The notes beneath the pieces are model-generated. The model was not told the DNA's origin and searched no databases. It was given only the letters and a program-made list of their open reading frames with translations. A DNA stretch of 26,420 bases from Bdellovibrionota bacterium FG-1 (GTDB lineage: Bacteria; Bdellovibrionota; UBA1018). The stretch lies in assembly GCA_051382295.1 (NCBI GenBank), contig JBBCAW010000026.1, positions 1-26,420 of the forward strand, in the 5' to 3' direction. Position 1 is the stretch's first letter. Every line of letters starts with the position of its first letter. Positions 1,317-22,223 of this stretch are shown piece by piece. Position numbers and translations under genes: made by a program.

Positions 1317-1724
1317 CTACTTCTGCACCTCTCCACACTCGAGCATCTGCTTGCCATAATACGGATTACGAATCGGGCCACTCCTTTGCAGCCACGATGC
1401 GTGGGCCATGGGACAAATCACTCGATCGATCCCCATGGGTTTTGCGGTTTCCGCCCAGTTAGTCATGAGCGCCGAAAGCTCTTTGAAATGAGCCCGCGCG
1501 TCTTCAATCGAGATATTCTTCCTCATGCCTTCAGCCGATTTCTGAAGCTTGCCGTCCTTCGTGTTTTTAATTAAATCGAGCGCCGCTACGGATACCTCAG
1601 TCATCGAGTCATTTGCCAGCGCCTCTTGAATCCGGAGGTACGCCGCTAGCCCGTCATCCGATGATTTGGCAAATGCAGATCCCGTTAGCAAAAGACCCAA
1701 AAGCAACATCAAATAAACCTTCAT
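1317..1724 (-). CDS. DUF3347-like periplasmic metal-binding protein, last gene of the cus-like operon
   Basis: Signal peptide; YLRIQEALAND helix; C-terminal CPMA..WLQ...IRNPYYG.QMLECG motif; ATGA overlap with the cusA stop. Confidence 0.8.
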   Translation of the reverse strand: MKVYLMLLLGLLLTGSAFAKSSDDGLAAYLRIQEALANDSMTEVSVAALDLIKNTKDGKLQKSAEGMRKNISIEDARAHFKELSALMTNWAETAKPMGIDRVICPMAHASWLQRSGPIRNPYYGKQMLECGEVQK

Positions 1725-4700
1725 ACCGCTTCTCCTTTATTCATTTCAAAATGCCACTTCCAGATCGTAAAAATGGCCGGATAAACCAAGAGTTCCATGG
1801 CAAATGAAGTGATAATCCCACCCAACATCGGGGCCGCAATTCGTTTCATCACATCGGCACCGGCGTTTGCCGTACTCGACCACATAATAGGCAGAATCGC
1901 CATGACCAGACAAGCCACCGTCATCACTTTGGGACGAAAACGCTTCACTGCACCATGATAAACCGCCTCACGGAGATCGGAAAAAGACCGCATCTGACCC
2001 GACTTTTTAGCCCCTTCGTACGCGATATCTAAATACAAGAGCATAAAAATACCCGTCTCCGCATCCACCCCCATGAGCGCTATCAGCCCCACCCACACAG
2101 CGATGCTCATATTGTATCCCAATAACCAAAGGAGCCACACCGCACCCACGGCCGAAAATGGAACGGCCAAAAGAACAATCGCCGTTTTCGGCCAAGACTT
2201 CGTGTTGGCATAAAGGAGCAGGATCACAATAAAAAGGGTGATCGGAACAATGACTTTGAGCTTTTCTCGGACCCTCATCATGTTTTCGTATTGACCGCTC
2301 CAAGAGAGCGCTATCCCGGTTGGGACTTTGAGCTTGGAAGCCACGAGTTTTTTGGCCTCCTCCACATAACTCCCAATGTTCCGGTCAGCTACGTCGATAT
2401 AGACATAACTCGAAAGCATCCCGTTCTCATTGCGCAACATTGCGGGTCCACTCACCATCTCCAAGTCAGCCACCTCACCCATCGGGATATGCGCCCCGTT
2501 AGGGGTGGCAATCAACACGTGCCTCAAAGAATCGATATTGCTTCTAAAATCACGAGAATACCGCACACTAATCGTATAACGCTCGCGGCCCTCCACCGTC
2601 GTCGAAACAGGATCACCGCCCACCGCAACCATGAGAGATTCTTGAGCCTGGGCAATACTAATCCCGTAGCGCGCCAATTTTTCTCGATTGAAATTAAAGT
2701 CCAAAAAGTACCCGCCCCCGGCGCGCTCCGCATAAACACTTCGCGTCCCTTTCACCGACGGCAGTAGCTGTTCGAGCTCGACCCCTACCCTTTCGAGTTG
2801 ATCCAGATTGGCGCCCATGATTTTGATGCCAACCGGAGTGCGAATGCCCGTAGTCAGCATATCAATGCGGTTTTGGATCGGCATCGTCCAGGCATTAGTC
2901 GTTCCTGGAAATTTTGTCTGCGCGTCGAGTTCTGCTACAAGCTCATCCCAGCTCATAAATCGCGGCCAAATCAACGTCAAAGGCCATTGCATGAACCTCG
3001 GTAAAAACGAGTACCAACGTTTCGCCTCCCGCCACTGCCCCTGTGGCTTAAGGACGATCGTCGTCTCCATCATCGAAAACGGAGCGGGGTCGGTCGACGT
3101 CTCAGCGCGACCCGCTTTCCCAAAAACTCTTTCGACCTCTGGAAAAGATTTGATGATCCGGTCTTGTTTCTGGAGCAGGTTTTGCGCCTCCCTCACCGAA
3201 ATACCCGGCAGCGTCGTCGGCATATAAAGAAGGGTACCCTCGTTCAGCGGGGGCATAAACTCCGAGCCAATCTGGAAATAGATCGGAATCGTAAGAATCA
3301 TCACGACAAGCGCACCCAGCACGACCCGAATACGATGATCAACTACCCAGTGCAAAACCGGTCCATAGTACTTAAAGAAGAATTGACTGATCGGATGATC
3401 GTCCTCGGAGCGGGTCTTTCCAACCAGCACCGCATTTTGAACTTTGGCGAGCCACCGGGGTTTAAAATCCTTGACCGAAAAATAACTCAAACTCACCCGA
3501 ATGGCCGGATCAAGCGTAATGGCAAGAAAGGCCGCCACTAACATCGAGAAATTTTTGGTAAAGGCGAGCGGCTTAAAAAGTTTCCCCTCTTGGGCTTCAA
3601 GCGCAAAGATGGGAATGAAGCTCACAGCGATGACGAGCAAGGAGTAGAAGCTCGCGGGTCCGACTTCCTTGATGGCGGCAATAATCACCTCTTTGACGTC
3701 CCCTTGCCTGCCGTTTTTCTCCCATGCCTCGATATGCTTGTGTGAGTTCTCTACGACAACGATTGCCGCATCCACCATCGCGCCAATGGCAATGGCAATA
3801 CCCCCCAGACTCATGATGTTGGTCGAGATCCCCAAAAAGTGCATAGGGATGAAACTAATGAGCACAGCCAATGGCAAGGTCACGATAGGGATCATCGCAC
3901 TCGGAATGTGCATCAAGAACACCAGGATCACTAAACTCACAATGATCATTTCAAGGGTTAGCTCATGCTTGAGGGTCCCGACCGCCCGGTAAATCAAGTC
4001 GGATCGATCATAGGTCGTGACCAGCTCTACGCCGGGAGGGAGCGATGATTTCAATTCCTTGAGTTTTGCCTTTACGGCGTTAATGACGCGAGTGGCGTTT
4101 TCGCCGTATCTCATGACGATGATTCCACCGACCGTATCCCCCTCCCCGTCCAAATCCGCAATGCCACGCCTGATTTCTGGGCCTGTCGTCACGTGCGCGA
4201 TGTTTTTGATGTAAATGGGAGTTCCGTTTTCATAGCCCAGCACAATATTTTCGAGGTCGTGAATATTTTTAGCATAACCACGCCCGCGAATCATATATTC
4301 AGACCCCGATACCTCCAAGAGGCGGGCGCCGACCTCGTTATTTCCTTCTTTGATCGCCTGGGCTACTTTTTGAATCGGAATTTTATAGGCGAGCAAGGCG
4401 TTGGGATTAATCTGCACCTGATATTGTTTCTGAAAACCTCCAATGGAAGCAACCTCAGCGACCCCCGGAACCGATTGCAAATGAAAACGAAGATTCCAAT
4501 CTTGAAGCGTTCGTAAATCAGCCAGCGAATGCTTCCCACTCTTATCGACGAGCGCATACTGGTAGACCCACCCTACCCCTGTAGCGTCAGGTCCCATTTC
4601 GGTTTTTACCCCTTGGGGGAGCTGTGGCGTAATTTTTGACAGGTATTCAAGCGTCCGAGAGCGCGCCCAATAAGGATCCGTTCCATCTTGAAAGATGACA

Positions 4701-4978
4701 TAAACGTAAGAAAATCCAAAGTCAGAGAAGCCGCGAATATCCTTGACCTTGGGTGCCCCAAGCATCGAGCTGATGATCGGATAGGTGACCTGGTCCTCGA
4801 TAATATCAGGCGAGCGATCCCACCGCGAATAAATGATCACTTGGGTGTCGGATAAGTCAGGAATGGCATCGACTGGAATAGCTTGAAGCGAAAACCATCC
4901 CGCTATGGCCGCTACTCCCACGAGAAGAAAAACCAAAAAACGATTCCGCGCTGAAAAGTCGATCACTTTTTCAAGCAT
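1721..4978 (-). CDS. cusA: CusA/SilA-family heavy-metal RND efflux permease (Cu(I)/Ag(I))
   Basis: Start reset to MLEKVIDFS at 4978 (AGGAG SD upstream). DAIPDLSDTQVII; NIMSLGGIAIAIGAMVDAAIVVVEN; equivalents of the CusA Met triad in LLYMP, FSMMET and RIDML. Confidence 0.95.
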   Translation of the reverse strand: MLEKVIDFSARNRFLVFLLVGVAAIAGWFSLQAIPVDAIPDLSDTQVIIYSRWDRSPDIIEDQVTYPIISSMLGAPKVKDIRGFSDFGFSYVYVIFQDGTDPYWARSRTLEYLSKITPQLPQGVKTEMGPDATGVGWVYQYALVDKSGKHSLADLRTLQDWNLRFHLQSVPGVAEVASIGGFQKQYQVQINPNALLAYKIPIQKVAQAIKEGNNEVGARLLEVSGSEYMIRGRGYAKNIHDLENIVLGYENGTPIYIKNIAHVTTGPEIRRGIADLDGEGDTVGGIIVMRYGENATRVINAVKAKLKELKSSLPPGVELVTTYDRSDLIYRAVGTLKHELTLEMIIVSLVILVFLMHIPSAMIPIVTLPLAVLISFIPMHFLGISTNIMSLGGIAIAIGAMVDAAIVVVENSHKHIEAWEKNGRQGDVKEVIIAAIKEVGPASFYSLLVIAVSFIPIFALEAQEGKLFKPLAFTKNFSMLVAAFLAITLDPAIRVSLSYFSVKDFKPRWLAKVQNAVLVGKTRSEDDHPISQFFFKYYGPVLHWVVDHRIRVVLGALVVMILTIPIYFQIGSEFMPPLNEGTLLYMPTTLPGISVREAQNLLQKQDRIIKSFPEVERVFGKAGRAETSTDPAPFSMMETTIVLKPQGQWREAKRWYSFLPRFMQWPLTLIWPRFMSWDELVAELDAQTKFPGTTNAWTMPIQNRIDMLTTGIRTPVGIKIMGANLDQLERVGVELEQLLPSVKGTRSVYAERAGGGYFLDFNFNREKLARYGISIAQAQESLMVAVGGDPVSTTVEGRERYTISVRYSRDFRSNIDSLRHVLIATPNGAHIPMGEVADLEMVSGPAMLRNENGMLSSYVYIDVADRNIGSYVEEAKKLVASKLKVPTGIALSWSGQYENMMRVREKLKVIVPITLFIVILLLYANTKSWPKTAIVLLAVPFSAVGAVWLLWLLGYNMSIAVWVGLIALMGVDAETGIFMLLYLDIAYEGAKKSGQMRSFSDLREAVYHGAVKRFRPKVMTVACLVMAILPIMWSSTANAGADVMKRIAAPMLGGIITSFAMELLVYPAIFTIWKWHFEMNKGEAV

Positions 4979-4992
4979 ACTTAATCTCCTCG

Positions 4993-6105
4993 TTAATCCG
5001 GCATGCACATCAACATAGGAACATCCCAGTGCTGACCTTTCGCACAAGTGGGCAAGGAGGGAGCGATCGCTTTCAATCTCGATTCTGAATCGATGAGGAA
5101 ATTAGCACTCGTGACGATCTTCTCACCACCCGAAAGGCCCGTGGCGATCGCGACGTCATCTCCCGCCTGGAACTTGACCGTCACCACCCGCGGAATAAAC
5201 TGACCTTTGTCGCCGACGAGAAAAACCCAAGCTTGTTTGCCCGTATCCAGAACCGCGTCAAAGGGCACTGTGACTTGCAGGCCCAATGGAACCAGGATCG
5301 TGACATCAACGTAGGATTCTGGCCGCATCAGAGTCGCGCCTTGCTGAACAAGAATGCGCACCTTAGCCGTGCGCGTCGTAGGATTAATGACCCGATCGAC
5401 CGAGGCCACCTTACCTACCAACCTATTGCCACCTAAAAAACTTGCGGTCATTTCGGCGGAAAGACCGGGCCGTAAATTGGAAAGATCCATTTCGTAAACG
5501 TCGGCGTAAACCCAGACCTGACTTCCGGGTTTATTGATCAGGAGATTTGAATCCGCAGGCCCGCTCGCACTCATTCCAGAGATTTGAAGATCCGAAAGGC
5601 CCAGAATCTTAAGTCGTAACTTTGCTGACTGAACCATCCGCTCAGCCGAATGCTGAACATCCACGAGAGCCGAGTCCTTGACTCGCTCCAGCTGACGGAT
5701 TGCCTCAGTGTACTCGTTTTGTGCCGTATACAATTCAGGATCAAACGCCAACCTCCCCGCCGCACGAATGGATTTAAAGAGGGGCTTTTTTTCGGCAATG
5801 CCTGTTTTAACTCCAATCATTTGACTTCGTTCGGCCGATAGAGAAAAAGCCGCGTGCGCTTCTGGAACCCCACCCAGAGGAGTGTTGACCTGAGATTTAT
5901 TCCCGCCCTCGACTTTGACGAGGTTCATACCGCAGATGGGACACTGGCCGGGACCTTCTTTATGAATCTGAGGGTGCATGGAACAAGTCCAGACCTCTTT
6001 TTGAACAAGTTGCGCGCCTGGGTTTGGCGAATGAGAAGTGCATCCGGACATAAAAGCAAACAATCCCGCAAAAACGAAAAAAAGAATAAAACCGAGCCTG
6101 TTCAT
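4993..6105 (-). CDS. cusB: CusB-like RND periplasmic adaptor with N-terminal heavy-metal-binding domain
   Basis: Lipoprotein-like N-terminus (MSGC); WTCSMHPQI...PGQCPICGMNL; VWVYADVYE, TRTAKVRI, GL..GEKIVTSANFLIDSES. Confidence 0.92.
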   Translation of the reverse strand: MNRLGFILFFVFAGLFAFMSGCTSHSPNPGAQLVQKEVWTCSMHPQIHKEGPGQCPICGMNLVKVEGGNKSQVNTPLGGVPEAHAAFSLSAERSQMIGVKTGIAEKKPLFKSIRAAGRLAFDPELYTAQNEYTEAIRQLERVKDSALVDVQHSAERMVQSAKLRLKILGLSDLQISGMSASGPADSNLLINKPGSQVWVYADVYEMDLSNLRPGLSAEMTASFLGGNRLVGKVASVDRVINPTTRTAKVRILVQQGATLMRPESYVDVTILVPLGLQVTVPFDAVLDTGKQAWVFLVGDKGQFIPRVVTVKFQAGDDVAIATGLSGGEKIVTSANFLIDSESRLKAIAPSLPTCAKGQHWDVPMLMCMPD

Positions 6106-7376
6106 AAACTGCCCCCAAATGGAAGATTACTCAAAGAAACCCCCGCTAGCTCTTCGAGGCGTGCCAAATTATCCGCATATTGCGCGAGATTTCGATAAAA
6201 AGCGATGCGGGTTTCATAAAGCGAACGCTCGCTGTCCAGAAGTTCAAGAAAACTAGTCCGACCCGCGAGGTAGGCACCACGAGAAGAATTGAGCACACTT
6301 GTAGCCTGGGGGATGAGCGCGGTTTGGTAGATTTGAAGGAGCTTTTCCCGAGAGCCCACCTTGGCCGTAAAGGACCGGATATCAGCCTGGAGGTTAAGTA
6401 TGGTTTTGTCGAGATTTCTCTCAGCTTCAAGTTGGTGGGCTGAGGCCTGCGCGACCTCGCTCGTTTGTTTGGCAAAAAACCAGAGGGGAATGGAGAGTTC
6501 AATACTTGCGGCATAGGCATTGTCCGGCGCATTTCCAAAGGCGCGGCGGTAAGACAGCATGAAATCGGGGGCGTAGCCCCAAAGTGCGACCGACTTTCGG
6601 GTTCCAGCCTCATCCACTAAATGCTCACCTTGCTGGACGCGCTTGGCGTTGGAATGGGCGAGAGCCGGAACTTGATCCAGAGCTACGTTCAGCTTAGGCA
6701 CTAAAAGTTCCTGGGCCGGGAGTTGAATGGGTTCCGCCGCATTCTGACCCAGAACAGCACCGAGCATGCCCTCCATGGTGCTGCGCTCCTCCTGCGCCAC
6801 GAGGAGTTCCATTTCAATCTTGGTCTGCTCGACATGGGCCTTCATCTCATCCTGTTGGGGTACCGCTCCCGTGGCATGACGGGATTCGGCCGCCCGCGCG
6901 ACCTCTCGAAGGGTCTCGCGTTGGGCTTGAAGGAGCGCTAGAATTCGATCCATCGTAAAAAGGTTGTAATATCCTGCGATCACCTTTTGTCTGATCTCGA
7001 GTTTTTTTGCATCGAATTCTGAATCCGCGCTCCGGGCGCGCGCGCGCTGAGCCGCGCCCATCAAAAAGTATTTTGCTGGAAATTTCACTTCTTGGCTCAC
7101 CGACCACATGTTCATCGGACCCATTTGCTGCTCCATGAAATTGAGACCGCTCTCATGCATCAGACCTATTTTGGGATTTTCCAAAGAATACTGCAATCGG
7201 ATGGCTGAATGCTCGGCATCGGCCGTTGCGATGGAAGCACCGAGTTCAGGATTGGCGCCTAGCGCGCGGGAGAGCGCTTTTTCAAGGGAAAGAGCGGGTT
7301 CATTTGCCTGAGCCGTCTCGGCCAAGAATAAGAGCGCACTTACGTTCAAAAACAAAAGTAGAACGAATGTTTTCAT
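6102..7376 (-). CDS. TolC/CusC-family outer-membrane channel
   Basis: Start reset to MKTFVLLL at 7376 (AAGGA SD). Signal peptide; OEP repeats (LSLEKALSRALGANP, LSIPLWF, AYLAGRTSFLELLD); ATGA overlap with cusB. Confidence 0.9.
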   Translation of the reverse strand: MKTFVLLLFLNVSALLFLAETAQANEPALSLEKALSRALGANPELGASIATADAEHSAIRLQYSLENPKIGLMHESGLNFMEQQMGPMNMWSVSQEVKFPAKYFLMGAAQRARARSADSEFDAKKLEIRQKVIAGYYNLFTMDRILALLQAQRETLREVARAAESRHATGAVPQQDEMKAHVEQTKIEMELLVAQEERSTMEGMLGAVLGQNAAEPIQLPAQELLVPKLNVALDQVPALAHSNAKRVQQGEHLVDEAGTRKSVALWGYAPDFMLSYRRAFGNAPDNAYAASIELSIPLWFFAKQTSEVAQASAHQLEAERNLDKTILNLQADIRSFTAKVGSREKLLQIYQTALIPQATSVLNSSRGAYLAGRTSFLELLDSERSLYETRIAFYRNLAQYADNLARLEELAGVSLSNLPFGGSL

Positions 7377-7543
7377 TAAAAAGTCCTTATAATACAAACA
7401 CCTATATCGTATACAGAGTTCTTCATTACGGGTGGTTTGGGGGCGTTCCTAGAAATCAATACGCATACCCCACGACGTTTGTGACACCGCAGCCAAAAAC
7501 AACTGGAACACTCAAAGAGTTCTCAGTCTTACTTCAACGATGT

Positions 7544-7571
7544 TTGACTTCTGCTAAGGTAATGGTACCTT
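7544..7571 (+). promoter_or_regulatory. Putative sigma70 promoter of the parA-rep operon
   Basis: TTGACT (7544-7549), 16-nt spacer ending in TGG, then TACCTT (7566-7571; extended -10), 35 nt before ATG 7607. Confidence 0.45.
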
Positions 7572-7606
7572 TTAACAAAGAACCCTTGCAACAAGGGGAA
7601 GGCTAT

Positions 7607-8869
7607 ATGAATACCACTTCAGAGACTCAGGGAACCGAACTCTTAGTACAAGCAGCAAACATCCATCAAACCCTTCAAGAGCCCCTTATTCCGGTGGTCG
7701 CTCCTGAACCTGCACCGAGTGTGAGCACTTATGACCCGCCTATTTCCAGGAAACTCATGGAAGGGCTCTGTGGATTAAGTACAAACACTCTCATCAAGTA
7801 TGAGATGGAGGGGGTGATTCACCCCTTTAAAGTGAAGTACGGCGGCCTAGAAATCGTGACCTATAAGGTGACCGATGTGCAGGCTGTGTTTAAAAAGCGC
7901 GGGGTGAGCTTCCGGAAACGTGCGTCGGCTGAAGTGATTTCGATTTTTTCTCAAAAGGGCGGCGTAGGCAAATCTGCTTTTGCTCAGCATCTGGGGGCTT
8001 TGCTTTCAATGGTGGGAAAGGTCTTGGTCATTGACCTGGACTCTCAGAGCGATGTGACCTCTTTGTTTGGGTTAAATGTTAAGTTTTCTGACCTAGTGGC
8101 CGAGGATGCTGAACTTGACCCGACGATTGCGGAGCTCATGGACTGGAAACTCAAAAACGGTCAAGAGTCCCCCTATCGTAAAATCGCCTTTCAGGATGTC
8201 GTCAAAAAGATCAGCCCCACCCTTCACGTCATTCCGGCTGATCTCGACTTGGGCGAAATCAATTATAGCCTGAACCGACTCGACCTTGAGGATAAGATTG
8301 ACGCAGAGGGTAACATTCGGCCGGCCATCCTTTATATGATTAAAGACGTGATCGACAGCATCAAAGATCAGTACGACTTTGTTTTGTTTGACTGTCCGCC
8401 CAATATCGAGACCTGTAACGTCAATGCGCTTTTTGCCTCCAATCGGATTATTGTTCCGCTTGAGCTTGAAGCCAAGTGCCTAAAGACGATGCGCCGGAAT
8501 GAGGATTTTCTTAACCGTCTCAAAACCCTTCATCCAGGGTTTCAATGGGACAAGATCCTGGTGGTTCCCAACAAGTTTCGGCGCGAAAATATTAAAATTA
8601 AGGCTCTCGCCAAACTTCAAGACATCTACTTCGACCGCGAAGATGTTCAACTTTCGCAGGCCGTATTTCCAAATGGCGCCATTATTGACCGATGCTCAGA
8701 GGCCCGCGAGCCGGTTTTTGTGGCGGCGACCCGCTATGGCAAAGAGTTTAAAACCGGCGTCCCACAGGCGAAGGAGTTTACCGACCTTTTTTGGGTCGTG
8801 ATGCATGAAATTTTAGATCTTCCCATTGAACGACTTGTTTTCTCTGAACAGCAAAACATGGAGGCTTAA
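7607..8869 (+). CDS. parA: ParA/SopA-family partition ATPase with N-terminal MerR-like HTH (type Ia-like)
   Basis: Start reset to ATG 7607 (AAGGGGAAGG upstream). Deviant Walker A QKGGVGKS, A' KVLVIDLDSQ, Walker B YDFVLFDCPP; N-terminal LCGLSTNTLIKYEMEGVIHP resembles the HTH of plasmid ParA/RepA proteins. Confidence 0.93.
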   Translation: MNTTSETQGTELLVQAANIHQTLQEPLIPVVAPEPAPSVSTYDPPISRKLMEGLCGLSTNTLIKYEMEGVIHPFKVKYGGLEIVTYKVTDVQAVFKKRGVSFRKRASAEVISIFSQKGGVGKSAFAQHLGALLSMVGKVLVIDLDSQSDVTSLFGLNVKFSDLVAEDAELDPTIAELMDWKLKNGQESPYRKIAFQDVVKKISPTLHVIPADLDLGEINYSLNRLDLEDKIDAEGNIRPAILYMIKDVIDSIKDQYDFVLFDCPPNIETCNVNALFASNRIIVPLELEAKCLKTMRRNEDFLNRLKTLHPGFQWDKILVVPNKFRRENIKIKALAKLQDIYFDREDVQLSQAVFPNGAIIDRCSEAREPVFVAATRYGKEFKTGVPQAKEFTDLFWVVMHEILDLPIERLVFSEQQNMEA

Positions 8870-10773
8870 TGGGCTTGTTGGATGCGGACGCGGAAGAACT
8901 CAAAAACAGCGCTAAGGCGATCTCCTCGTCGGGGACTGGTTCAGGCCGCAAGGTCAACCAATCGGGCTTAGGCGCGTTCAAGGGCCTTTCCAAATACTCC
9001 AATCTTACCGCAAAATACCGATCACCGCCCCCTTCTCCATCCGTGGAACAATCGCGTGGAACAACTCAAGCATCTGAGAAACCAGCTCAAGTGAGTGCAA
9101 ACTCAGTGCAAAGTGAGTGCGAAGTCAGTGCAGAGAAATCACCCTCCCCTTCGATTTTGGCTGTGTTTGCAAAACCAGAGAAGTCAGTGCAAAGTGAGTG
9201 CGAAGTCGGTGCAAACCCGGTGCAAAGTGAGTGCAAACCCGGTGCGAAGTCAGTGCAGATCTCTTTGGGCGAAACCACCCAAGTTATTGAAATAGAAAAT
9301 ATAAGTGAAAATCAAAGTCAGTGCGAAGTCGGTGCAATAAGGTTAACTTTGCCGCCTATTGTTGTACCCGTCGACAAGAGCGCGACGAGCCCGATCAAGT
9401 CAGTGCAGAGTGAGTGCGAAGTCGGTGCAGATCTATCGAACTCAGTGCAAACTCAGTGCGATGTAGGTGCAAAGTCAGTGCAACCCAGTATGCCTGCAGA
9501 ATCACCAGACGAGCCTTTATTACCTCAAGTGAAAAAAGAGGCCCCCCAAAGGTCACAAAATCAAGTCAGTGCAAAGTCAGTGCAAAGTCGGTTTGAACTC
9601 CGTGCCAACTCAGTGCAAAGTCCTGTTGAAGTCGGTGCACCTGAAATACTTATCCACAGCTTCACGCCGTCAAGTCCGGGCGAAGTCCGTTCCCAAGTCC
9701 GTGCACCAGTCGGTGCAAAGTTAGTGCGAAGTCCGTGCAAACTTGAACCTTTAGAAAGTATCACTGCACTCGCGGGAGCTCAGCGAATTGTCATTGAATT
9801 CCTATTTGACCGCTGCCTTTGGAACAACTCTTTAGTCACTCCCCCCATCACAAAACAACAGCTCATCGAAGGTACTCAACTCCTTGAAGACACGGCTCTT
9901 TCTGCTATTAAGCGCCTTCGCAAAAAAGCAATCATCGATCGCTATGCGTACAAGGACGGCCAAGCTGGTTGGACCCAGTATCAATTGGCTGACGATAGCT
10001 ACCGCGAATTGCTTCATCTTCATCAATACAGTGCAAAGTCGGTGCAAAGTCAGTCTAAAGTCAGTTCCAAAGTCGGTTCAGAAGTCAGTGCAACGCCCTC
10101 TAGTAGTAGTAGTTTTAATAAGAGTGTTTCAGAAAAACTACTCACTACTGAAAACCTCGATCCAAACATCATCGCTCTCACGCAACACGAGGGTTGGAGT
10201 CAAGTGGACTATTCACCCTTGCGAGCGAGCCCCATTCACTTTACGCGAGAGCATCTTGAACAGATCCGTAAAGAAGGCAAGCTCAGTCACCTCCAAGTTC
10301 AAGAATCAATCAATGCCTTTGCCTATGATATGGGCAATCAAGAATACTCTCGCACCAAGCGCAGCCCTCTTAATTTCTTTATGGCCATTGTCAAAGTGAA
10401 AGGGGAGGTCTATCAATCCGTTGTGCCGGGCTATCAACCCCCCGAGAATCTCGATCTACAAGATTACCTGACCGAGTTGGAAACCAAGAACCGCTCAAAA
10501 CAAGAACTTCTGAAAACGCTGTTTACGGCCAAATTTGAGGAATGGTTTGCCGCGCTGACCGGGGATCAAATTAATATTTATTGCGGTTGGTCACGAGATT
10601 TCGAACAACAAAAAGAACATATCAAAACGCTTTTCAAAAAATACCTTTGGCTCGAAGTCCGCTCCCATCCCCAGATTGACGCTAAAGCGCTTCATTTGCC
10701 CTCAGGTGCCGATTTATCACCGTCAACGCAGGCGTCTTCTGCCTCTTCTGCGGATGGCCTAGAGATCGAGTAG
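8869..10773 (+). CDS. Putative replication initiator / centromere-binding protein: low-complexity repeat-encoded N-half, central winged helix (about aa 295-382), helical C-terminal region
   Basis: TAATG coupling to parA; wHTH-like ITKQQLIEGTQLLEDTALSAIKRLRKKAIIDRYAYKDGQAGWTQYQL; intragenic 11-bp arrays and a DnaA box. The CDS is well supported; the function is inferred. Confidence 0.65.
   Translation: MGLLDADAEELKNSAKAISSSGTGSGRKVNQSGLGAFKGLSKYSNLTAKYRSPPPSPSVEQSRGTTQASEKPAQVSANSVQSECEVSAEKSPSPSILAVFAKPEKSVQSECEVGANPVQSECKPGAKSVQISLGETTQVIEIENISENQSQCEVGAIRLTLPPIVVPVDKSATSPIKSVQSECEVGADLSNSVQTQCDVGAKSVQPSMPAESPDEPLLPQVKKEAPQRSQNQVSAKSVQSRFELRANSVQSPVEVGAPEILIHSFTPSSPGEVRSQVRAPVGAKLVRSPCKLEPLESITALAGAQRIVIEFLFDRCLWNNSLVTPPITKQQLIEGTQLLEDTALSAIKRLRKKAIIDRYAYKDGQAGWTQYQLADDSYRELLHLHQYSAKSVQSQSKVSSKVGSEVSATPSSSSSFNKSVSEKLLTTENLDPNIIALTQHEGWSQVDYSPLRASPIHFTREHLEQIRKEGKLSHLQVQESINAFAYDMGNQEYSRTKRSPLNFFMAIVKVKGEVYQSVVPGYQPPENLDLQDYLTELETKNRSKQELLKTLFTAKFEEWFAALTGDQINIYCGWSRDFEQQKEHIKTLFKKYLWLEVRSHPQIDAKALHLPSGADLSPSTQASSASSADGLEIE
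9089..9739 (+). repeat. Six tandem arrays of an 11-bp direct repeat (consensus AAGTCRGTGCR), about 33 units
   Basis: Counted by eye: 9089-9132 (4), 9181-9257 (7), 9315-9336 (2), 9397-9482 (3+4), 9563-9639 (7), 9672-9739 (6, two 12-bp steps). Confidence 0.95.
9650..9658 (+). promoter_or_regulatory. DnaA box
   Basis: Exact TTATCCACA between repeat arrays 5 and 6. Confidence 0.7.
10025..10092 (+). repeat. Seventh array of the same 11/12-bp repeat (6 units), directly after the wHTH-coding segment
   Basis: AATACAGTGCA AAGTCGGTGCA AAGTCAGTCTA AAGTCAGTTCC(A) AAGTCGGTTCA(G) AAGTCAGTGCA, followed by AT-rich TAGTAGTAGTAGTTTTAATAAG. Confidence 0.9.
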
Positions 10774-11187
10774 AGAAAATTTTCGATGGCCACCGCGCGT
10801 TCGCCGGCAGGGAATATTCCCTGAATCTGCCTCACGTCGTACTTCGTTGATATCCATGCCTCTCATCTGGGCAAATTTGGCGATTGAAAGGTCGTAGATC
10901 TTGGTTTCTGCGCATTCTGAAACCATGAGGCGAGGGGAGGGGAGCTCTTCGCCCCGTTCTAATCGCGCCGCAGCGGCCGTGTGGGCTTTTAAGAGCGAAT
11001 CAAACACCTTGCGCCCGAGTTCCTGAAAGAAGAGGGGCCACTCCGCAAGGCTGGCGTGGTCGTCTGGATGCCGAACGGCTTGCATCGAAAGCTCCACAAA
11101 GCCTGGCGCGCTAAAATATACATGAGGCTTGTTGAGCTGTACGGATAATTCGATACGAGGGCTGTGCTTCCGTGAAAATTTACTCAT
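10759..11187 (-). CDS. Small regulator: HicB-like N-terminal region plus C-terminal BldC/Xis-like (HTH_17) winged helix
   Basis: C-terminal LSIAKFAQMRGMDINEVRREADSGNIPCRRTRGGHRKF parallels BldC (RTLGGHRRY); YFSAPGF and RLERGEELPSP resemble HicB. Converges on, and overlaps by 15 nt, the rep-like gene. Confidence 0.65.
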   Translation of the reverse strand: MSKFSRKHSPRIELSVQLNKPHVYFSAPGFVELSMQAVRHPDDHASLAEWPLFFQELGRKVFDSLLKAHTAAAARLERGEELPSPRLMVSECAETKIYDLSIAKFAQMRGMDINEVRREADSGNIPCRRTRGGHRKFSLLDL

Positions 11188-11193
11188 TGGCTA

Positions 11194-11229
11194 AAATCTA
11201 TCAAATCTAATAAATCTATCAAATCTAAT
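11194..11229 (-). promoter_or_regulatory. 4 x 9-bp direct repeat (2 x 18 bp) covering a putative leaderless promoter
   Basis: Plus strand AAATCTATC AAATCTAAT AAATCTATC AAATCTAAT. On the minus strand it reads TTGATA-16-TAGATT-7 nt-ATG(11187). Confidence 0.75.
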
Positions 11230-11537
11230 TTCAAGTGACCTAAGTAATGTAGTCTGGTATTGGCTTTTTTCGGAACCCTGTCGAGACTCAGGTTTTAAAA
11301 GGACGGGGAATTTGATTTTAAGCTAAGCAGAACTCACTCGAATAAAAAGTTTTGAGAATTTATCGAGAAGATCGCTGTCAAATTTTCCACGATCTTCGAC
11401 CATCACTTCAATCGCTTTTGCGGGCGAGAATCCTTGCTCTCGAAACGGACGTGGACTCAGGAGGGCCGAAAAACTATCAGCAAGAACAGATATTTTGACA
11501 GGCAGATTGGCCTGAAATACGCATCCGAGCGGGCGCT

Positions 11538-13664: not shown

Positions 13665-13789
13665 ACGGGGATGACTATACCCCATCGACCCGCGTTACTG
13701 AAACAGATCCTCAACGCTGTCAATGGATTGGCTCGGGACAACATCTCCGATCGTGTTAGAATGGCTCGGGAAGGGTCTCACTATTGACT

Positions 13790-15094
13790 ATGATAAGGTT
13801 ATTGCTTCTGCCTTTGTTTTCGGTCTTTGCGGTTTCATTCGCGCATGCCGATATTCTTTTCATTGATATGAATGGCTCGGCCCGCGAAGTGAGTGCCGCC
13901 CGGGAGGCGGCAAGCGCCCGCCACGAGAAGCTCCTTGTCTTCCCTGACCTTCCTGATGAGGTTCGTCGCGAAATGGCCGTACTTCGCACGATGATCGCGA
14001 CGGCTAAGAAAGGGTCGACCGCAAGTATTTCTGCGCATGAACGCGTCCTTGCCCTTTCTCGGCAATATTCGCAGTCTATGCCGAACCTTGAAAAGGTATT
14101 GCAGGCGGCCGATTTGGCCCACCAGAAGATTGCATCGGTCGTCGTTTCGGGCCATCGTGCGAAAAATGGAACCTATTTCGGGACATTTATTATTCGACCG
14201 GACGAGGAGATTACGGACGACGTCCTGATGAACCTCTTCAAATCTCACCATTCAACTCAGGATTCCCTAACGGGCATTTTCCTCTGGTCCTGCTATGCGG
14301 GGAGTAAACCCAATATTGAGGAATGGAAAAAAAGCTGGCCGCAGCTACAAATTATTTTCGGGTTTCAGGAGCAGAGCCCGTTAGGGGACAGCGATCAAGC
14401 GCGGGATGTTTTAAGGGATGTGCTTACTAGGCAATCGGAGCTGGCCCTTCAAAATGACCTCGCCACTGCTTCAGCGGCGATCAGCCATGTTTCGTCGTCT
14501 TTGAGTACTTCCCTCTCAGGTGCTATCGGTCCGTGTTGGGTTGCGGCGGGAAGGCCAGAAATGAGCACTTTGCTTTATGCGCAATCGGGTTGCCCACCCT
14601 CTCTGTCCAAGGACCTACTTAGGCTCATTCAAACCTACTGGGATATTCGCAATGCCACGGGGTACGATGATGTTCCTCGCGACGAACCTAAAAACCCTTT
14701 GCGGCAGCTCAATAAATACCTTTACAACCACCCAGAATGCTTTCGAGACCTGGCACGGGTGCCATCCAAGTCGCAAGTGATCTCTCTCATCCACTTTCCC
14801 GAGGTGGCCAAGGCTTTTGGGCGCTTCCATGAAGACGCACTCCGGGAGGCGGAGAATGCGCTCAGAAATGCGGGAGCTCCCGCCGACGTGCAGATTCCGA
14901 GCTTGGATTCTGGAAAAGTCACTCGACACGAGTTTCTGGCCCAGTTGAGGCGACTTCAGGCATTTCTCGGGGGAATCCGCAGCGGAAACGCAGATTTGAG
15001 CCTTCCTGAGAATTTGAAACCGGCTGATCAGATCTGTCAGCGGATGGAGATGATGCTGCTCGACATGTCAGAGGTGCCGGTCGAGTGGCTTTGA
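13790..15094 (+). CDS. Secreted hypothetical protein with possible caspase/CHAT-like His-Cys dyad
   Basis: Signal peptide MIRLLLLPLFSVFAVSFAHA; VVVSGH and GIFLWSCY motifs. Confidence 0.6.
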   Translation: MIRLLLLPLFSVFAVSFAHADILFIDMNGSAREVSAAREAASARHEKLLVFPDLPDEVRREMAVLRTMIATAKKGSTASISAHERVLALSRQYSQSMPNLEKVLQAADLAHQKIASVVVSGHRAKNGTYFGTFIIRPDEEITDDVLMNLFKSHHSTQDSLTGIFLWSCYAGSKPNIEEWKKSWPQLQIIFGFQEQSPLGDSDQARDVLRDVLTRQSELALQNDLATASAAISHVSSSLSTSLSGAIGPCWVAAGRPEMSTLLYAQSGCPPSLSKDLLRLIQTYWDIRNATGYDDVPRDEPKNPLRQLNKYLYNHPECFRDLARVPSKSQVISLIHFPEVAKAFGRFHEDALREAENALRNAGAPADVQIPSLDSGKVTRHEFLAQLRRLQAFLGGIRSGNADLSLPENLKPADQICQRMEMMLLDMSEVPVEWL

Positions 15095-15168
15095 GCGATT
15101 AACGCAGCGCGGACTTGTGAGCTTCGTCATTGCGGCCATGTCCTGTGCGTGCGAAAATGTGAGGCACT

Positions 15169-16374
15169 ATGACAGAAGCCTATATTTTCGACGCAATCCG
15201 AACCCCTCGCGGGAGAGGAAAAAAAGATGGGTCTTTATACGAAGTCAAACCGATCAGCCTTCTGACGGGGCTGATGAAAGCGCTCGAGCAGCGCCTGAAG
15301 CTTGATACGTCACGCGTCGATGACGTGATTATCGGCTGCGTGACCCCGGTGGGCGATCAGGGCGCATGCATCGCCAAGACGGCGGCACTCGCGGCGGGCT
15401 GGAGCCAAGAAATGGCCGGTGTTCAAATTAATCGATTTTGCGCCTCAGGCCTGGACGCTGTGAATCTCGCCGCCCAGAAAGCCCGCGCGGGCTGGGACGA
15501 ACTCATCGTTGCAGGTGGTGTGGAGTCGATGTCGCGTGTGACGATGGGAAGTGACGGCGGCGCTTGGGCACTGGACCCTGAGACCAACCTCGGCACGGGC
15601 TTCGTTCCGCAAGGTATCGGTGCGGATCTGATCGCGACTCTCGAAGGCTTCACACGCGAGGACGTCGATCGTTTCGCGGTGGGTTCGCAGCAAAAGGCCG
15701 CGGCCGCACGCAAGAATGGTCATTTCGTGAAATCCATCATCCCCGTGCGAGATGCTAGCGGCCTCGTGATTCTTGAGCATGACGAACTGATTCGCGAGAA
15801 TACAACCGTCGAAGGTCTAGGCACCCTTAAGGCGGCGTTCGATAAGCTGGGCGGGATGGGTTTTGACTCGGTTGCGTTGCAGAGGTACCCGCATGTCGAG
15901 CGGATCAGGCACGTCCATCACGCTGGCAACTCGTCAGGAATGGTCGATGGCGCGGCACTCGTTTTGATCGGCACGGAAAAATGTGGAAAAGAGCTGGGAT
16001 TGAAGCCGCGCGGTCGCATCGTCTCGGTGGCCTTGGCCGGAACCGATCCTACGATCATGCTGTTGGGGCCCGGGCCCGCCACGCGTAAAGCGCTCACGCG
16101 AGCCGGTTTGAAAGTTGCCGATATTGACCTTTTCGAGGTCAACGAGGCCTTTGCCTCGGTCGTCATGCGCTTTATCCGTGAGATGGACATTCCGGCGGAA
16201 AAAGTCAACGTGAACGGGGGCGCGATCGCCATGGGGCACCCATTGGGCGCGACGGGGGCGATGCTGGTAAGCACCGCGCTTGACGAACTCGAGCGGCGGA
16301 ACAAACGTTACGGATTGATCACGTTGTGTGTGGGCGGCGGTATGGGAATCGCCACGATCATCGAAAGATTATAA
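15169..16374 (+). CDS. fadA: Acetyl-CoA C-acyltransferase (3-ketoacyl-CoA thiolase)
   Basis: NRFCASG (nucleophile Cys), [29 protein letters not shown]. Confidence 0.95.
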
Positions 16375-16387
16375 GGGGATTCTCCAA

Positions 16388-18556
16388 ATGAGCGAAACCA
16401 TTCATTATGAAAAAAGCCAAGAGAACATCGTCACGTTGACGATGGATATGCCGAATTCCTCCGCCAACATCATGAACGGGGCATTCATCGAGGCGTTTGA
16501 GGCCATTTTGCAGCGCCTCGAGCGCGAAAAGAACGAAATCGCTGGCGTCATCCTGACCTCCGCGAAAGCGACTTTTTTCGCGGGTGGCGATCTGAGCGAG
16601 CTGATTGAGGTTAGGCCCGAGCAGGCTGAACTTTTTTTTAAGCACGTTGAGCATCTCAAAGGAATGCTGCGTAGGCTTGAGAGTTGGGGCAAGCCGGTCG
16701 TGGCCGCCATCAACGGTGCGGCCCTGGGCGGCGGCTGGGAGCTCGCGCTCGCTTGCCATCATCGCATTTGCCTCGATCATTCATCCATTCAGCTCGGCAT
16801 GCCCGAGGTGACGTTGGGTCTTTTGCCGGGTGCCGGGGGCGTAATTCGTACGGTGCGTTTGCTGGGACTCCAAGAGGCGTTTCCTTATCTCGTGGAGGGC
16901 AAGAAGATCCGTCCGCAAGAAGCACTCGAAAAAGGCCTGGTGCACGAGCTCGCAAAAGACCCTGTCGAGATGATGGCGAAAGCCTCGGCGTGGATTCTTG
17001 CTCATCTACAGGCCAAGGCGCCTTGGGATAACCCGGAATATAAGATTCCGGGCGGGACGCCCAGCAATCCCCAGGTGGCGCAGATGCTCATGGTTGCTCC
17101 CGCGATGCTGCGAGAGAAGACGAGGGGTTGTTACCCAGCCCCCGAGGCCATTCTTGCGGTCATGGCTGAAGGCGCGCAGGTGGACTTCGATACTGCGCTT
17201 CGAATCGAGAGTCGTGCCTTTGTCAATCTTGCCACTAGCCAGGTTTCCAAGAACATGATTGGCACGATGTGGTTCCAGCTCAACAAGATCCATGCGGGCG
17301 CGAGCCGTCCTGATGGGTATCCTCAGTGGAAGGCCAATCAGGTCGCCGTGCTCGGCGCCGGCATGATGGGCGCGGGCATCGCCTATGCGTGTGCCACTCG
17401 CGGAATTCGCGTGGTTTTGAAGGATGTGAGCAGCGAGTCCGCCGAGAGGGGTAAGTCTTATACTGAAAAACTTCTTGCCAAAAAGGTTTCGCGCGGACAA
17501 ATGACTGAGGCCAAAAAATCCGATATTTTGGGCTTGATTCGCCCGACGGCCGACGCCAAAGACCTCGCGGGATGCGATCTCATGATCGAAGCCGTGTTTG
17601 AGAACCGTGAGCTCAAATTCAAAGTCATCGGCGAGGCGGAGCCTTACCTCGCGCCGAACGCGTTGCTTTCGTCGAATACGTCTACGCTTCCGATCACGGG
17701 GCTTGCACCGGCGACCAAAACGCCAGAAAGGTTCATCGGGCTGCATTTTTTCTCGCCCGTGGATAAAATGGATCTCGTGGAGATCATCGTCGGCAAGAAA
17801 ACTTCAGATGAAACGATTGCGCGCGCATTTGACTTTGTAATGCAGATTGGCAAGACGCCCATAGTGGTGAACGATAGCCGAGGTTTTTTCACTAGTCGCG
17901 TGTTTACCACTTATGTTTTCGAAGGCATGGCTATGCTCGCGGAAGGGCTCACCCCCAGCGCGATTGAGACCGCCGCGTTGATGGGCGGTATGCCGGTAGG
18001 CCCGCTTGCCGTGACGGACGAGGTGTCGATCAGTCTTTGTGCCCACATCATGGCGCAAACGCGGGCGGACTTCGAGGCGGAAGGCAAGAAGTATGTCCCG
18101 CATCCGGCCGAAGATACGGTGATCCGCCGGATGATCAGTGAATTCAAACGACCTGGAAAAGCGGCAGGCGGCGGTTTTTACGAATATCCGAAAGATGGAA
18201 AGAAATTCCTTTGGCCGAATTTGCAGACTCATTATGTTCAGAAGGATCGACAAATCCCCTTGGAGGACATGCGAGACAGGCTTTTGTTTATCCAAGCGCT
18301 CGAAACCGTGCGCATTCTCGAAGAGGGCGTGTTGAGAACAGTGCGCGACGGCAATGTCGGGTCGATTTTAGGACTCGGATTTGCGCCGTGGTCAGGTGGA
18401 GCCCTGCAGTACATTAACCAATATGGCCAGGACGGAAAGTCGGGCCTCAAGCGCTTTGCGGCGCGCGCTCACGAACTCGCTACTCGTTACGGCGAGCGTT
18501 TCGCGTCGCCTGCGCTTTTGCTCAAAAAGGCCGAGTCTGGTGAAATTTTCGAATAG
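16388..18556 (+). CDS. fadB: Multifunctional enoyl-CoA hydratase / 3-hydroxyacyl-CoA dehydrogenase (FadB/FadJ alpha subunit)
   Basis: Start reset to MSETIHY at 16388 (AAGGGG SD). FAGGDL, ALGGGWE, PEVTLGLLPGAGG; GAGMMGAG, SSNTSTL, GLHFFSP. Confidence 0.95.
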   Translation: MSETIHYEKSQENIVTLTMDMPNSSANIMNGAFIEAFEAILQRLEREKNEIAGVILTSAKATFFAGGDLSELIEVRPEQAELFFKHVEHLKGMLRRLESWGKPVVAAINGAALGGGWELALACHHRICLDHSSIQLGMPEVTLGLLPGAGGVIRTVRLLGLQEAFPYLVEGKKIRPQEALEKGLVHELAKDPVEMMAKASAWILAHLQAKAPWDNPEYKIPGGTPSNPQVAQMLMVAPAMLREKTRGCYPAPEAILAVMAEGAQVDFDTALRIESRAFVNLATSQVSKNMIGTMWFQLNKIHAGASRPDGYPQWKANQVAVLGAGMMGAGIAYACATRGIRVVLKDVSSESAERGKSYTEKLLAKKVSRGQMTEAKKSDILGLIRPTADAKDLAGCDLMIEAVFENRELKFKVIGEAEPYLAPNALLSSNTSTLPITGLAPATKTPERFIGLHFFSPVDKMDLVEIIVGKKTSDETIARAFDFVMQIGKTPIVVNDSRGFFTSRVFTTYVFEGMAMLAEGLTPSAIETAALMGGMPVGPLAVTDEVSISLCAHIMAQTRADFEAEGKKYVPHPAEDTVIRRMISEFKRPGKAAGGGFYEYPKDGKKFLWPNLQTHYVQKDRQIPLEDMRDRLLFIQALETVRILEEGVLRTVRDGNVGSILGLGFAPWSGGALQYINQYGQDGKSGLKRFAARAHELATRYGERFASPALLLKKAESGEIFE

Positions 18557-18581
18557 GCTACATCGATAGGAAAGCGTAAGA

Positions 18582-18956
18582 ATGATGACAAGAGACACCA
18601 GGCTTGTTTACTCGACTGATCCGGCGCTGAACCAGAAATGTCCAAAGTGCAAAGAAGTTGTTTCGGAGTGTGTCTGCGAGGCCAAACTTGGGAAAGACCA
18701 GGCCAAAGCCTCACGCTTTGTGGCAATCCTCCGAATTGAGAAAGCCAATCGCGGAGGCAAGACGGTGACTGTGATCGATGGGTTGCCCAAATCAGAGCTT
18801 TATCTCAAAGAGCTGACGACTCAGCTGAAAAAGAAATGTGGCTCCGGCGGCACCTATCTCATGGGTGGTCGAGATGGGGTCATCGAGATCCAAGGTGACA
18901 AGCGGGAGCTGATTCGGGCGGCTCTCGAAAAGCAAGGGATCAAGCATAAAGGGTAG
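18582..18956 (+). CDS. yciH: SUI1/eIF1-family translation factor YciH
   Basis: LVYSTD; RGGKTVTVIDGL; LKKKCGSGGT; IEIQGDKR. Confidence 0.92.
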   Translation: MMTRDTRLVYSTDPALNQKCPKCKEVVSECVCEAKLGKDQAKASRFVAILRIEKANRGGKTVTVIDGLPKSELYLKELTTQLKKKCGSGGTYLMGGRDGVIEIQGDKRELIRAALEKQGIKHKG

Positions 18957-18978
18957 AAATAGAGGACTCTGCGGCTGG

Positions 18979-21954: not shown

Positions 21955-21962
21955 AGGTGCCT

Positions 21963-22223
21963 CTATTTTAAAATCCATTCGCGCATGAGTTGCTTAATTT
22001 GGGTTTGATAACGGACTCCGTGAAGTTCTGATTTTTTTCTAAAAATGTCTAGCAGATCTGTGGGAATTTTGATGCTGATGAGTCGGCTTTTGGTTGGGAT
22101 TAAGGATTCTCGATTCGCATGCAGTTTCCTAAAGTCCTCCAGAAACTTGACGATGTTCAATGTGCTCATCGTCTGGCATTGCTTGAGATATTCGGGAGAA
22201 AAATATTGAACGATCTTTTTCAT
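21963..22223 (-). CDS. BrnA/CopG-like ribbon-helix-helix antitoxin-type protein
   Basis: SRLISIKIPTDLLDIFRKKS...GVRYQTQIKQLM matches the BrnA/CopG C-terminal pattern; ATGA overlap with the upstream NTase. Confidence 0.75.
   Translation of the reverse strand: MKKIVQYFSPEYLKQCQTMSTLNIVKFLEDFRKLHANRESLIPTKSRLISIKIPTDLLDIFRKKSELHGVRYQTQIKQLMREWILK

Follow-up and report, generated by a model that had tools for sequence, protein, structure and literature searches.

Origins inside initiator genes and centromeres made of phased repeats are both already known. In RepA_N plasmids (pAD1, pSK41, pCF10) and in the repC gene of repABC plasmids, the origin and its repeats lie in the central variable part of the initiator gene; the repABC operon has a ParA-type repA and differs from the locus described here in its separate ParB (RepB) and in an intragenic origin that is not an 11-bp array. 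ParA ATPases of type I partition systems, for their part, require a DNA-bound partner that stimulates them. Here we describe a gene that may combine the two themes. It lies on contig JBBCAW010000026.1 of Bdellovibrionota bacterium FG-1 (assembly GCA_051382295.1), which was analysed over its full 26,420 bp as one window (contig C26; no terminal overlap). The gene is a member of a very large unnamed family, stands directly behind parA, and carries inside its coding sequence arrays of an 11-bp direct repeat on both sides of the segment that encodes a predicted winged-helix domain, followed by an inverted repeat of AGT and ACT triplets.

Among the described origins closest to this design is that of phage lambda, where, as here, sites and an AT-rich region lie inside the initiator gene, in its linker-coding part, and transcription passes through the origin, according to the portion of the source drawn on here (PMC5043065). 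Lambda differs in having four 19-bp inverted repeats bound by dimers, against 13-38 direct 11-bp units in two sets, and in its P helicase-loader gene, whereas no P- or DnaC-like loader gene follows the family gene and parA is coupled to it instead; the AT-rich part in the family spans just 9-30 nt, with (AGT)n on one side and (ACT)n on the other. Rep_3 iteron plasmids (pPS10, F, RK2) and the 11- and 12-mers of RctB also have helix-phased direct repeats; these adjoin a DNA unwinding element, to which the AT-rich spacer of the family may correspond, and the repeat word sets specificity and incompatibility there, as it may here. Rep_3 iterons, however, are 17-22 bp long and non-coding, and Rep has two winged-helix domains rather than one. 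An initial annotation of this DNA had pointed to the 11- and 12-mers of Vibrio chromosome II; that analogy is formal only, no search having related the protein to the RctB family.

The other point of reference is a group of centromeres, namely R388 StbA/stbS, R1 and pB171 ParR/parC, pBtoxis TubR/tubC and pNOB8 AspA, which also consist of head-to-tail repeats of about one helical turn in two sets, served by small (w)HTH or RHH (ribbon-helix-helix) proteins, with a segregation NTPase in the operon. The stbS site of R388 is made up of two groups of five 9-bp repeats, and 2-bp spacers bring its cycle to 11 bp; in tubC, seven repeats of 12 bp are divided between two sets; the sites are bound cooperatively on one DNA face by PadR/MarR-like winged-helix proteins, and ParR and AspA form filaments, as the sections of the source used here describe (10.1101/2022.04.29.490116). 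Such centromeres occupy non-coding DNA ahead of the operon, whereas here the sites are mostly inside the partner open reading frame (ORF); the proteins are small and without a conserved 200-aa C-terminal domain, and no AT-rich inverted repeat is attached to the repeats.

The 11-bp repeat within the parA-coupled gene

The ORF at 8869-10773 (+ strand, 634 aa) begins with an ATG that shares one base with the parA stop codon. About 39 copies of AAGTCRGTGCR had been reported at 9089..10092, in seven same-strand arrays with an 11-bp period and a few 12-bp steps, and this description held up. Tandem Repeats Finder returned seven period-11 arrays within 9089-10093 (Table 1), in agreement with a pattern scan that gave 36 units at ≤2 mismatches and, by script, 39 non-overlapping units at ≤3 mismatches, of which the one at 9281 is doubtful (hence 38-39). 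Spacing is mostly 11 bp, with 12-bp steps at 9695, 9707, 10070 and 10082, in the last two arrays. At ≤2 mismatches the window holds 65 matches versus 20.9 ± 4.6 in shuffled sequence, with none of 100 shuffles reaching 65; all 36 matches within 9089-10092 are on the + strand, and the other 29 are dispersed across the window on both strands. An even dispersal over the genome, which would have told against a local element, was not seen: 14 of the 18 exact copies genome-wide lie at 9122-10092 of the window contig, and a reversed-pattern control found 9+9 matches in the whole genome.

The repeat cycles through the reading frames, as had been claimed. Phases 0, 1 and 2 are taken by 11, 18 and 10 of the 39 units, one word is kept in each phase, and the off-frame ORFs 9095-9295 and 9414-9596 encode the same peptides as the repeat. 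The AAGTGAGTGCG variant, which codes for Glu, occurs mostly in phase 2 of the window units, a phase-specific bias. Five TGA-bearing variants (9089, 9111, 9192, 9225 and 9408; phases 1, 2, 2, 2 and 2) never fall in the stop phase; the earlier observation is correct, but it is expected of any open ORF and carries little weight. A scan of window positions 7000-11500 at Rfam gathering thresholds gave no match.

Arrays flank the winged-helix segment across the family

A phmmer scan of 1.84 billion representatives (clusters at 50% identity) placed the 634-aa protein in a family of 1093 representative clusters at E ≤ 1e-3, 590 of them at E ≤ 1e-10, found in Bdellovibrionota, Oligoflexia, Gammaproteobacteria and other bins. 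We found no prior description of this gene family in the collection of open-access papers searched. A typical member has 400-480 aa (45-95 kDa across the family) and runs from an N-terminal tail through repeat peptides, a winged helix, further repeat peptides and a Ser run...Thr run to a helical C-terminal domain.

Thirty-eight distinct family genes were read as DNA, 36 of them full-length and two truncated, after removal of five duplicates; they came from the window, two named plasmid records, genome and metagenome contigs and 401 genomes scanned within the phylum. In 33 of the 36 full-length genes, 13-38 units at a period of 11 (few at 10 or 12), all on the coding strand, flank the winged-helix segment, so that the homologs carry non-triplet repeats of their own, a check proposed with the initial annotation. 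Units per gene number 8-32 upstream of that segment, 0-2 inside it and 4-10 immediately downstream, and seven is the commonest count before the Ser run; in the window no unit falls within the segment at 9766-10014. The word varies from gene to gene (AAAGTCAGTGC, AAACTAGAGAC, AAACCGGACAC, AAACGGGTAGC and AAAGTTGAGCC; common form AAA[C/G]NNNNN[A/G]C). The same layout is common at the protein level. Of 151 full-length representative proteins, a tripeptide is repeated at least three times upstream of the winged helix in 131, the same tripeptide returns within 45 aa downstream of it in 107, and SSS..TT is present in 107.

The window's word, AAGTCAGTGCA, is kept in L032, L033 and L034, where units show 82-88% mean identity to one shared consensus; these genes use the same codon at only 40-54% of identical winged-helix residues (the L040 row, misaligned, was excluded from this comparison). 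A selected peptide would give a 33-bp unit whose thirds are free to drift, and for this reason the repeat is best read as a DNA word rather than a peptide. With non-triplet repeats in the homologs and a word that differs from gene to gene, the conservation is at the level of DNA, as first proposed, and the sequence comparisons indicate that the repeat is a DNA-level element.

An AGT/ACT inverted repeat follows the downstream array

Behind the downstream array, most family genes have a GC cluster, TCT(AGT)3-5, a spacer of 9-30 nt (71-100% A+T) and (ACT)2-7, translated as SSSSS...TTTT. Because AGT and ACT are reverse complements, this element is an inverted repeat. Codon choice in it is nearly fixed: AGT accounts for 118 of 141 Ser-run codons versus 329 of 1461 Ser codons elsewhere in the same genes, and ACT for 88 of 96 Thr-run codons versus 305 of 1037. 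In the window, a 1-nt insertion puts the ACT run into another frame (LLTT), and it is therefore the DNA that is conserved there and not the peptide. The folding energy of the window element as single-stranded DNA is -8.6 kcal/mol (z -2.6), which 3 of 200 shuffles equal. A strict pattern recovers the element in 25 of the 38 genes, with a spacer shorter than classical DNA unwinding elements. In the window, the downstream array and inverted repeat (10025-10149) occupy the stretch that separates the winged helix (ending at ~aa 395) from the C-terminal domain (starting at ~aa 430).

Shifted to another phase, (AGT)n becomes (TAG)n, which is like the DnaA-trio motif, a resemblance only; the part of the source consulted places that motif, 3'-G/AAT-5', next to chromosomal unwinding elements (PMC10797057). 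A perfect DnaA-box consensus stands between two sub-arrays of the window (Table 1) and is probably incidental, judging from its homologs: the 38 genes have no conserved DnaA box, and the four relaxed matches inside them amount to a density below that outside genes. A DnaA-dependent origin was considered as a family feature and dropped, the box at 9650 having no conserved counterpart in the 38 genes.

The repeat word co-varies with the recognition helix

Distance between units is correlated with distance between recognition helices (Mantel r 0.56, common register, n = 31), and the correlation persists after correction for the remainder of the domain (partial r 0.40, p = 2e-4), with a converse partial r of 0.31. 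The test covered 31 of the 38 genes; L009, L018, L020, L021, L023, L024 and L035 were left out because their units were not 11 long, numbered below 12, or accompanied a domain that was truncated. Particular words recur with particular helices: GGTAGC units pair with SKN.I.RLI.K in two genes that diverge elsewhere, L017 and L063, GGAC units with S.QKT.QRLE, and CCG[G/A]ACAC units with GSVKT..RRLEEK. This is the co-variation of repeat and recognition helix that the initial annotation had suggested looking for. Along with the arrays of the homologs, it supports the earlier proposal that the units are iterons or a centromere for the encoded winged-helix protein, and we consider it very probable that the 11-bp units are binding sites for the gene's own product.

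The genome itself (4.44 Mb, 158 contigs) has three such modules with three words: AAAGTCAGTGC on C26, AAACCCGGTCA on C29 and AAACCGGCAAC on C81. Contig C81 is circular (12,192 bp, 127-bp terminal overlap) and carries parA, the family gene, a relaxase-like ORF and coupling protein, a resolvase and a PIN toxin. On contig C29 (9.2 kb), the module is accompanied by genes for a MobA relaxase, a NikA-like protein and two resolvases, and by IS66 pieces. The word has diverged together with the recognition helix, and therefore several such replicons could share one cell.

Arrays can lie outside the gene

Sites are inside the partner ORF in most members and upstream of parA only in L018, L020, L021 and a Legionella plasmid. 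In L021, which comes from an Oligoflexia bin, the gene is nearly free of units and lacks the Ser/Thr run. Instead, CACAAACTGCYYACA occurs in seven copies in the non-coding 770 bp upstream of parA, with an eighth inside the gene (8 matches versus 0.10 expected by chance). Behind these arrays, also non-coding and upstream of parA, stands AAGCCC-TCTAGTAGTTAGTTAG-TCTTTATTATAAAAAA (AT-rich)-CTAACTACAACTA. From this relocation it follows that arrays and TAG/AT/CTA element belong together as a single cis module that works as DNA and can be placed outside the gene. In L018 and L020, related words occur upstream of parA.

The encoded protein

AlphaFold2 modelled aa 290-634 with a mean pLDDT of 85.3 and a single MarR-like winged helix, placed at ~aa 296-395, in line with the ~aa 295-382 first proposed. 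Against 3oop_A, VIA-align gave Z 9.9 (rmsd 2.3 Å over 87 aligned residues), with many other MarR, PadR and ArsR chains also matched; Foldseek matches (E ~1e-2) included MarR/PadR/ArsR regulators, TubR and AspA. The repeat-encoded short linker is predicted to be disordered (pLDDT 37-52). For the C-terminal domain, PDB fold searches returned nothing informative (best VIA-align Z 5.0, best Foldseek E 1.9), and a profile search of PDB sequences gave only generic winged-helix and coiled-coil matches at E ≥ 0.04. The N-terminus is conserved in the close group as MGLLDSDAEELK...GRKVNQSGLGAFKGL, which we take to be a loose resemblance to the ParB N-terminal motif.

The initial annotation had been unable to assign the gene to a described Rep family, and indeed no Pfam, NCBIfam or PHROG model was significant or reached its curated cut-off for the window's 634-aa protein, Phage_rep_O and O-like models (Pfam, PHROG) included. 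When the winged helix was compared with PHROG and Pfam in 72 family members, 24 matched phrog_270 (best E 5.3e-9), 24 the 'O-like' phrog_678 (best 3.2e-7, a weak-to-moderate likeness to lambda O), 24 phrog_428, 14 phrog_391, 12 the DnaD-like (loader) phrog_186 and 3 a 'transcriptional regulator' phrog. Pfam matches among the 72 were to HTH_36 (5), Phage_rep_O (3) and DnaD_N (2). In the window protein and the 72 members alike, Pfam gave no match to Rep_3 or a related model (the structural model has one winged helix, not two), none to RepA_N and none to RP-C at cut-off, and neither a ParBc nor a ribbon-helix-helix (RHH) domain was found. RP-C appears only among the Atlas neighbours of the family, a lead only, as a cluster at 0.92 beside viral HTH_36 clusters (0.93). 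In sequence, the winged helix thus seems closest to phage O-type, DnaD-type and HTH_36 initiator domains. A tblastn search of phage records with a typical member found no match.

parA coupling and plasmid context

Among the 34 loci with at least 800 bp of upstream sequence, 31 have a ParA-like ORF that ends -60 to +150 nt from the start of the family gene. No parB follows the gene pair, and those 31 loci show no other partner candidate beside parA. The Walker-type ParA gene immediately upstream is shared with type I ParA cassettes; the partner, however, is neither ParB/Srx (Ia) nor a small RHH protein (Ib) but a 45-95-kDa winged-helix protein. The window ParA matches NCBIfam partition_RepA (1e-19) and SopA (3e-11), both under cut-off. 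Most partner ParAs have an N-terminal extension of 50-110 aa and varying sequence, absent from L051, L052, L021 and C81. The helix-turn-helix (HTH) of this extension was considered as the binder of the arrays and rejected, since L051, L052 and C81, with short ParAs, keep arrays.

In PLSDB the pair occurs in 69 records of Piscirickettsia salmonis, each with the family gene directly after parA, three of Bdellovibrio and one of Legionella, and the gene is listed as hypothetical everywhere. The complete 11.9-kb plasmid pBdHAGR4 has no recognisable initiator besides the family gene; apart from the pair it encodes a resolvase, toxin-antitoxin pairs, a protein that weakly matches Replic_Relax and an ATPase resembling coupling proteins. 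The circular 12.2-kb C81 is built like pBdHAGR4 and also has no other recognisable initiator. The genes common to pBdHAGR4, C81 and C29 are only parA, the family gene and the resolvase. For P. salmonis LF-89, the part of the published description consulted states that a search for an initiator, an origin or iterons had failed on three of four plasmids (PMC6963756). GC skew was uninformative for pBdHAGR4 and for an IS-rich P. salmonis plasmid.

The 161-kb plasmid pBdHM1 has a module at 75,717-79,133; its ParA is 74% identical to that of the window, and the family gene only 30-33%. Elsewhere in its record, of which 50,001-100,000 is L067, this plasmid has genes for RecA, SSB, ribonucleotide reductase, dUTPase, Dam methylase, ArdA and ClpX, a set reminiscent of a large phage-plasmid.

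Table 1. Positions of the repeats, genes and domains in the window, and of one array in a Legionella plasmid
Feature	Position	Strand	Remark
parA-type Walker ATPase gene	7601..8869	+	422 aa from ATG 7601; AAA_31 7e-31, CbiA 1e-12
ParA N-terminal extension	7601-7915	+	~105 aa with HTH, as in type Ia ParAs
634-aa gene, unnamed family	8869..10773	+	N-terminal tail; repeat-encoded low-complexity part; winged helix; repeat-encoded short linker; helical C-terminal domain
Period-11 array	9089-9132	+	Tandem Repeats Finder, 4.0 copies
Period-11 array	9181-9257	+	Tandem Repeats Finder, 7.0 copies
Period-11 array	9315-9335	+	Tandem Repeats Finder, 1.9 copies
Period-11 array	9397-9483	+	Tandem Repeats Finder, 8.1 copies, indels
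Period-11 array	9563-9622	+	Tandem Repeats Finder, 5.5 copies
Period-11 array	9671-9738	+	Tandem Repeats Finder, 6.0 copies
Period-11 array	10031-10093	+	Tandem Repeats Finder, 5.5 copies; also scored at period 12
Upstream arrays, 32 units in six sub-arrays	9089..9739	+	unit count 5' of winged-helix segment
Upstream sub-arrays by unit scan	9089-9132, 9181-9257, 9315-9336, 9397-9482, 9563-9639, 9672-9739	+	
Perfect DnaA-box consensus TTATCCACA	9650..9658	+	between two sub-arrays; sole exact match in window
Winged-helix (MarR-like) DNA-binding domain, coding segment	9766..10014	+	predicted; unit-free; AlphaFold2 pLDDT 96-98
Downstream array, 6 units	10025..10092	+	ends directly 5' of GC cluster ACGCCC
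Inverted repeat TCT(AGT)4, spacer, ACTACT-C-ACTACT	10099..10149	+	23-nt spacer, 78% A+T; translated SSSSS...LLTT
Conserved helical C-terminal domain, aa 430-634	10156..10770	+	predicted; AlphaFold2 alone pLDDT 89.6
13-bp tandem repeat TTTATAAATATGA, 5.7 copies	L073 26048-26134 (Legionella sainthelensi plasmid record 76,048-76,134)		upstream of parA; classical par-locus layout

Origin, centromere or both

We tentatively prefer a reading in which the protein is both the partner of ParA and the initiator, and its sites are both centromere and origin; it covers most of the facts, and we hold it at somewhat less than even confidence. One winged helix would sit on each 11-bp unit, head to tail and on the same DNA face, and the 11-bp phased A-tracts, slightly above the helical repeat, would favour a superhelical filament, so that a phased nucleoprotein filament could form on both array sets flanking the winged-helix-coding segment. 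On the downstream side, a filament on the seven-unit array might stress the AT-rich spacer between the TAG and CTA runs, and the C-terminal domain might recruit host replication proteins; the downstream array, GC cluster and (TAG)n / AT-rich / (CTA)n element would most likely be the replication origin, in the way that ori-lambda lies inside gene O. The long upstream arrays would be the cargo site of ParA, a centromere because there is no separate parB; titration or handcuffing of the initiator is a further possible role for them. With its sites inside its own gene, the protein would act in cis as it is made and could hold back transcription of that gene. On this reading parA and the family gene would form a self-contained plasmid maintenance cassette, with a lambda-O-like origin as a probable component. 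Considerably bolder, and in our estimate doubtful, is the full version, in which one ORF is at once origin and centromere, the two genes are a complete low-copy maintenance system that can be re-addressed by co-evolution of word and helix, and the TAG/AT/CTA element is a two-sided, DnaA-trio-like strand-capture site.

Several observations weigh against the dual role. A subfamily with a different C-terminal domain keeps the arrays and lacks the Ser/Thr inverted repeat (0 of 20, versus 105 of 128 others), although it is one clade and its members are not independent cases. The family genes have no conserved DnaA boxes, and recruitment of a helicase by the C-terminal domain is pure inference, the domain having no informative structural relative. 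The GC skew of pBdHM1 counts on both sides: the closeness of its cumulative minimum (82,382) to the module speaks for an origin, but the two are 3-6 kb apart, and a random place has an ~8% chance of being that close. In P. salmonis, the plasmid that was examined has a gene for an HTH_36 protein (5.4e-6) as well as a second parA, so that a different initiator is possible there. Two modules stand 10-16 kb apart on some contigs. The Mantel p-value overstates the case because the genes are related, and the signal of the recognition helix is only moderately above that of the rest of the domain (partial 0.40 versus 0.31). Finally, the gene for the 320-aa member on the Legionella sainthelensi plasmid is free of repeats, an array of 13-bp units stands in front of the parA that precedes it, and the plasmid's GC-skew minimum (44,969) falls at a separate locus, with parA-parB and an HTH protein that has weak RP-C and HTH_36 matches; this module looks like a plain partition cassette.

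The Legionella plasmid fits more easily with the possibility that the module is a centromere and nothing more, the protein being a large winged-helix analogue of ParR, TubR, AspA or StbA that binds parS-like arrays within its own gene, with replication started elsewhere by an unrecognised initiator. This is the chief competitor of the dual reading. Near-obligate synteny with parA, genes that overlap or nearly touch and the lack of another partner gene in 31 of 34 loci all point this way, as do two sets of head-to-tail direct repeats of about one turn, a hallmark of known centromeres, and the related words upstream of parA in L018 and L020. Foldseek lists TubR (3m8f, 3m9a), AspA (5k5q) and a pNOB8 protein (4rs8) at E ~2-5e-2, no better than MarR regulators. 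What a centromere alone leaves unexplained is the conservation of the element made of GC cluster, (TAG)n, AT-rich spacer and (CTA)n, which travels together with the arrays in L021, the similarity of the winged helix to initiator domains, and the conserved 200-aa C-terminal domain; nor do the small complete plasmids share any other initiator candidate. We regard this explanation as possible, on the unlikely side.

The converse, a lambda-O-like initiator with intragenic iterons whose parA is merely co-transcribed and uses another site or partner, would account for the initiator-like winged helix (PHROG, Pfam, Atlas), for the AT-rich element adjoining the arrays and for the lack of another recognised Rep in pBdHAGR4 and C81, and it has a precedent in ori-lambda, where iterons and then an AT-rich region lie within gene O and transcription activates the origin, in the part of the source used (PMC5043065). 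It is nevertheless improbable, since ParA requires a partner and none other is encoded beside it in 31 of 34 loci, and since 13-38 units are far above the usual need of origins. That the repeat has no such DNA-level function, being a low-complexity linker made by slippage or merely an autoregulatory roadblock or operator, is very improbable and already largely refuted: the predicted disorder of the short linker and the phase bias of AAGTGAGTGCG, which points to an added protein-level constraint, would suit it, but peptide selection cannot explain an 11-bp period across differing words, one word on both sides of the domain that is kept where synonymous sites have diverged, arrays moved into non-coding DNA in L021, or Ser and Thr codons fixed as AGT and ACT with the window's ACT run kept across a frame change.

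The rest of the contig

The tetranucleotide composition of C26 is ordinary for the genome (rank 58 of 87), and positions 13784-21978 hold housekeeping-type genes (a thiolase, a FadB-like enzyme, SUI1/YciH and a GltD/DPD-like oxidoreductase); C26 could therefore belong to a chromid or a megaplasmid, or else the module could sit in the chromosome. Divergent from parA lies a CusCBA-like heavy-metal RND efflux operon (1721-7397, - strand) with an AcrB-family pump, a membrane-fusion protein with a heavy-metal-binding domain and an outer-membrane factor. A convergent 142-aa ORF (10759-11187, - strand) overlaps the end of the family gene with its 3' end; its C-terminal part weakly resembles HTH_17 (E 0.054), and an ORF with 33% identity takes the same place in L032. 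Directly upstream of its start, at 11194-11229, is the tandem repeat AAATCTATC (a perfect 18-bp x2, or 9-bp x3.8), which could be an operator. A BrnA-antitoxin-like ORF beside a DUF6036 nucleotidyltransferase-like ORF (21963-22738, - strand) may be a toxin-antitoxin pair.

Significance

What is new here is the family itself, the 11-bp arrays on both sides of a domain-coding segment, the AGT/ACT inverted repeat running through a Ser...Thr stretch and the near-obligate coupling to parA without parB, on a scale of more than 1000 clusters. The overlapping codes are unusually clear, two cis elements dictating the codons, and even the residues, of their probable binder. The natural pairs of word and helix are a data set for the winged-helix recognition code and for plasmid incompatibility. 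Current annotation pipelines and replicon-typing schemes miss the module, which is present on P. salmonis plasmids for which, according to the consulted part of the published description, an initiator and an origin were sought in vain (PMC6963756). More generally, a very large family listed as hypothetical proteins (1093 clusters) gains a candidate function in replicon maintenance or partition.

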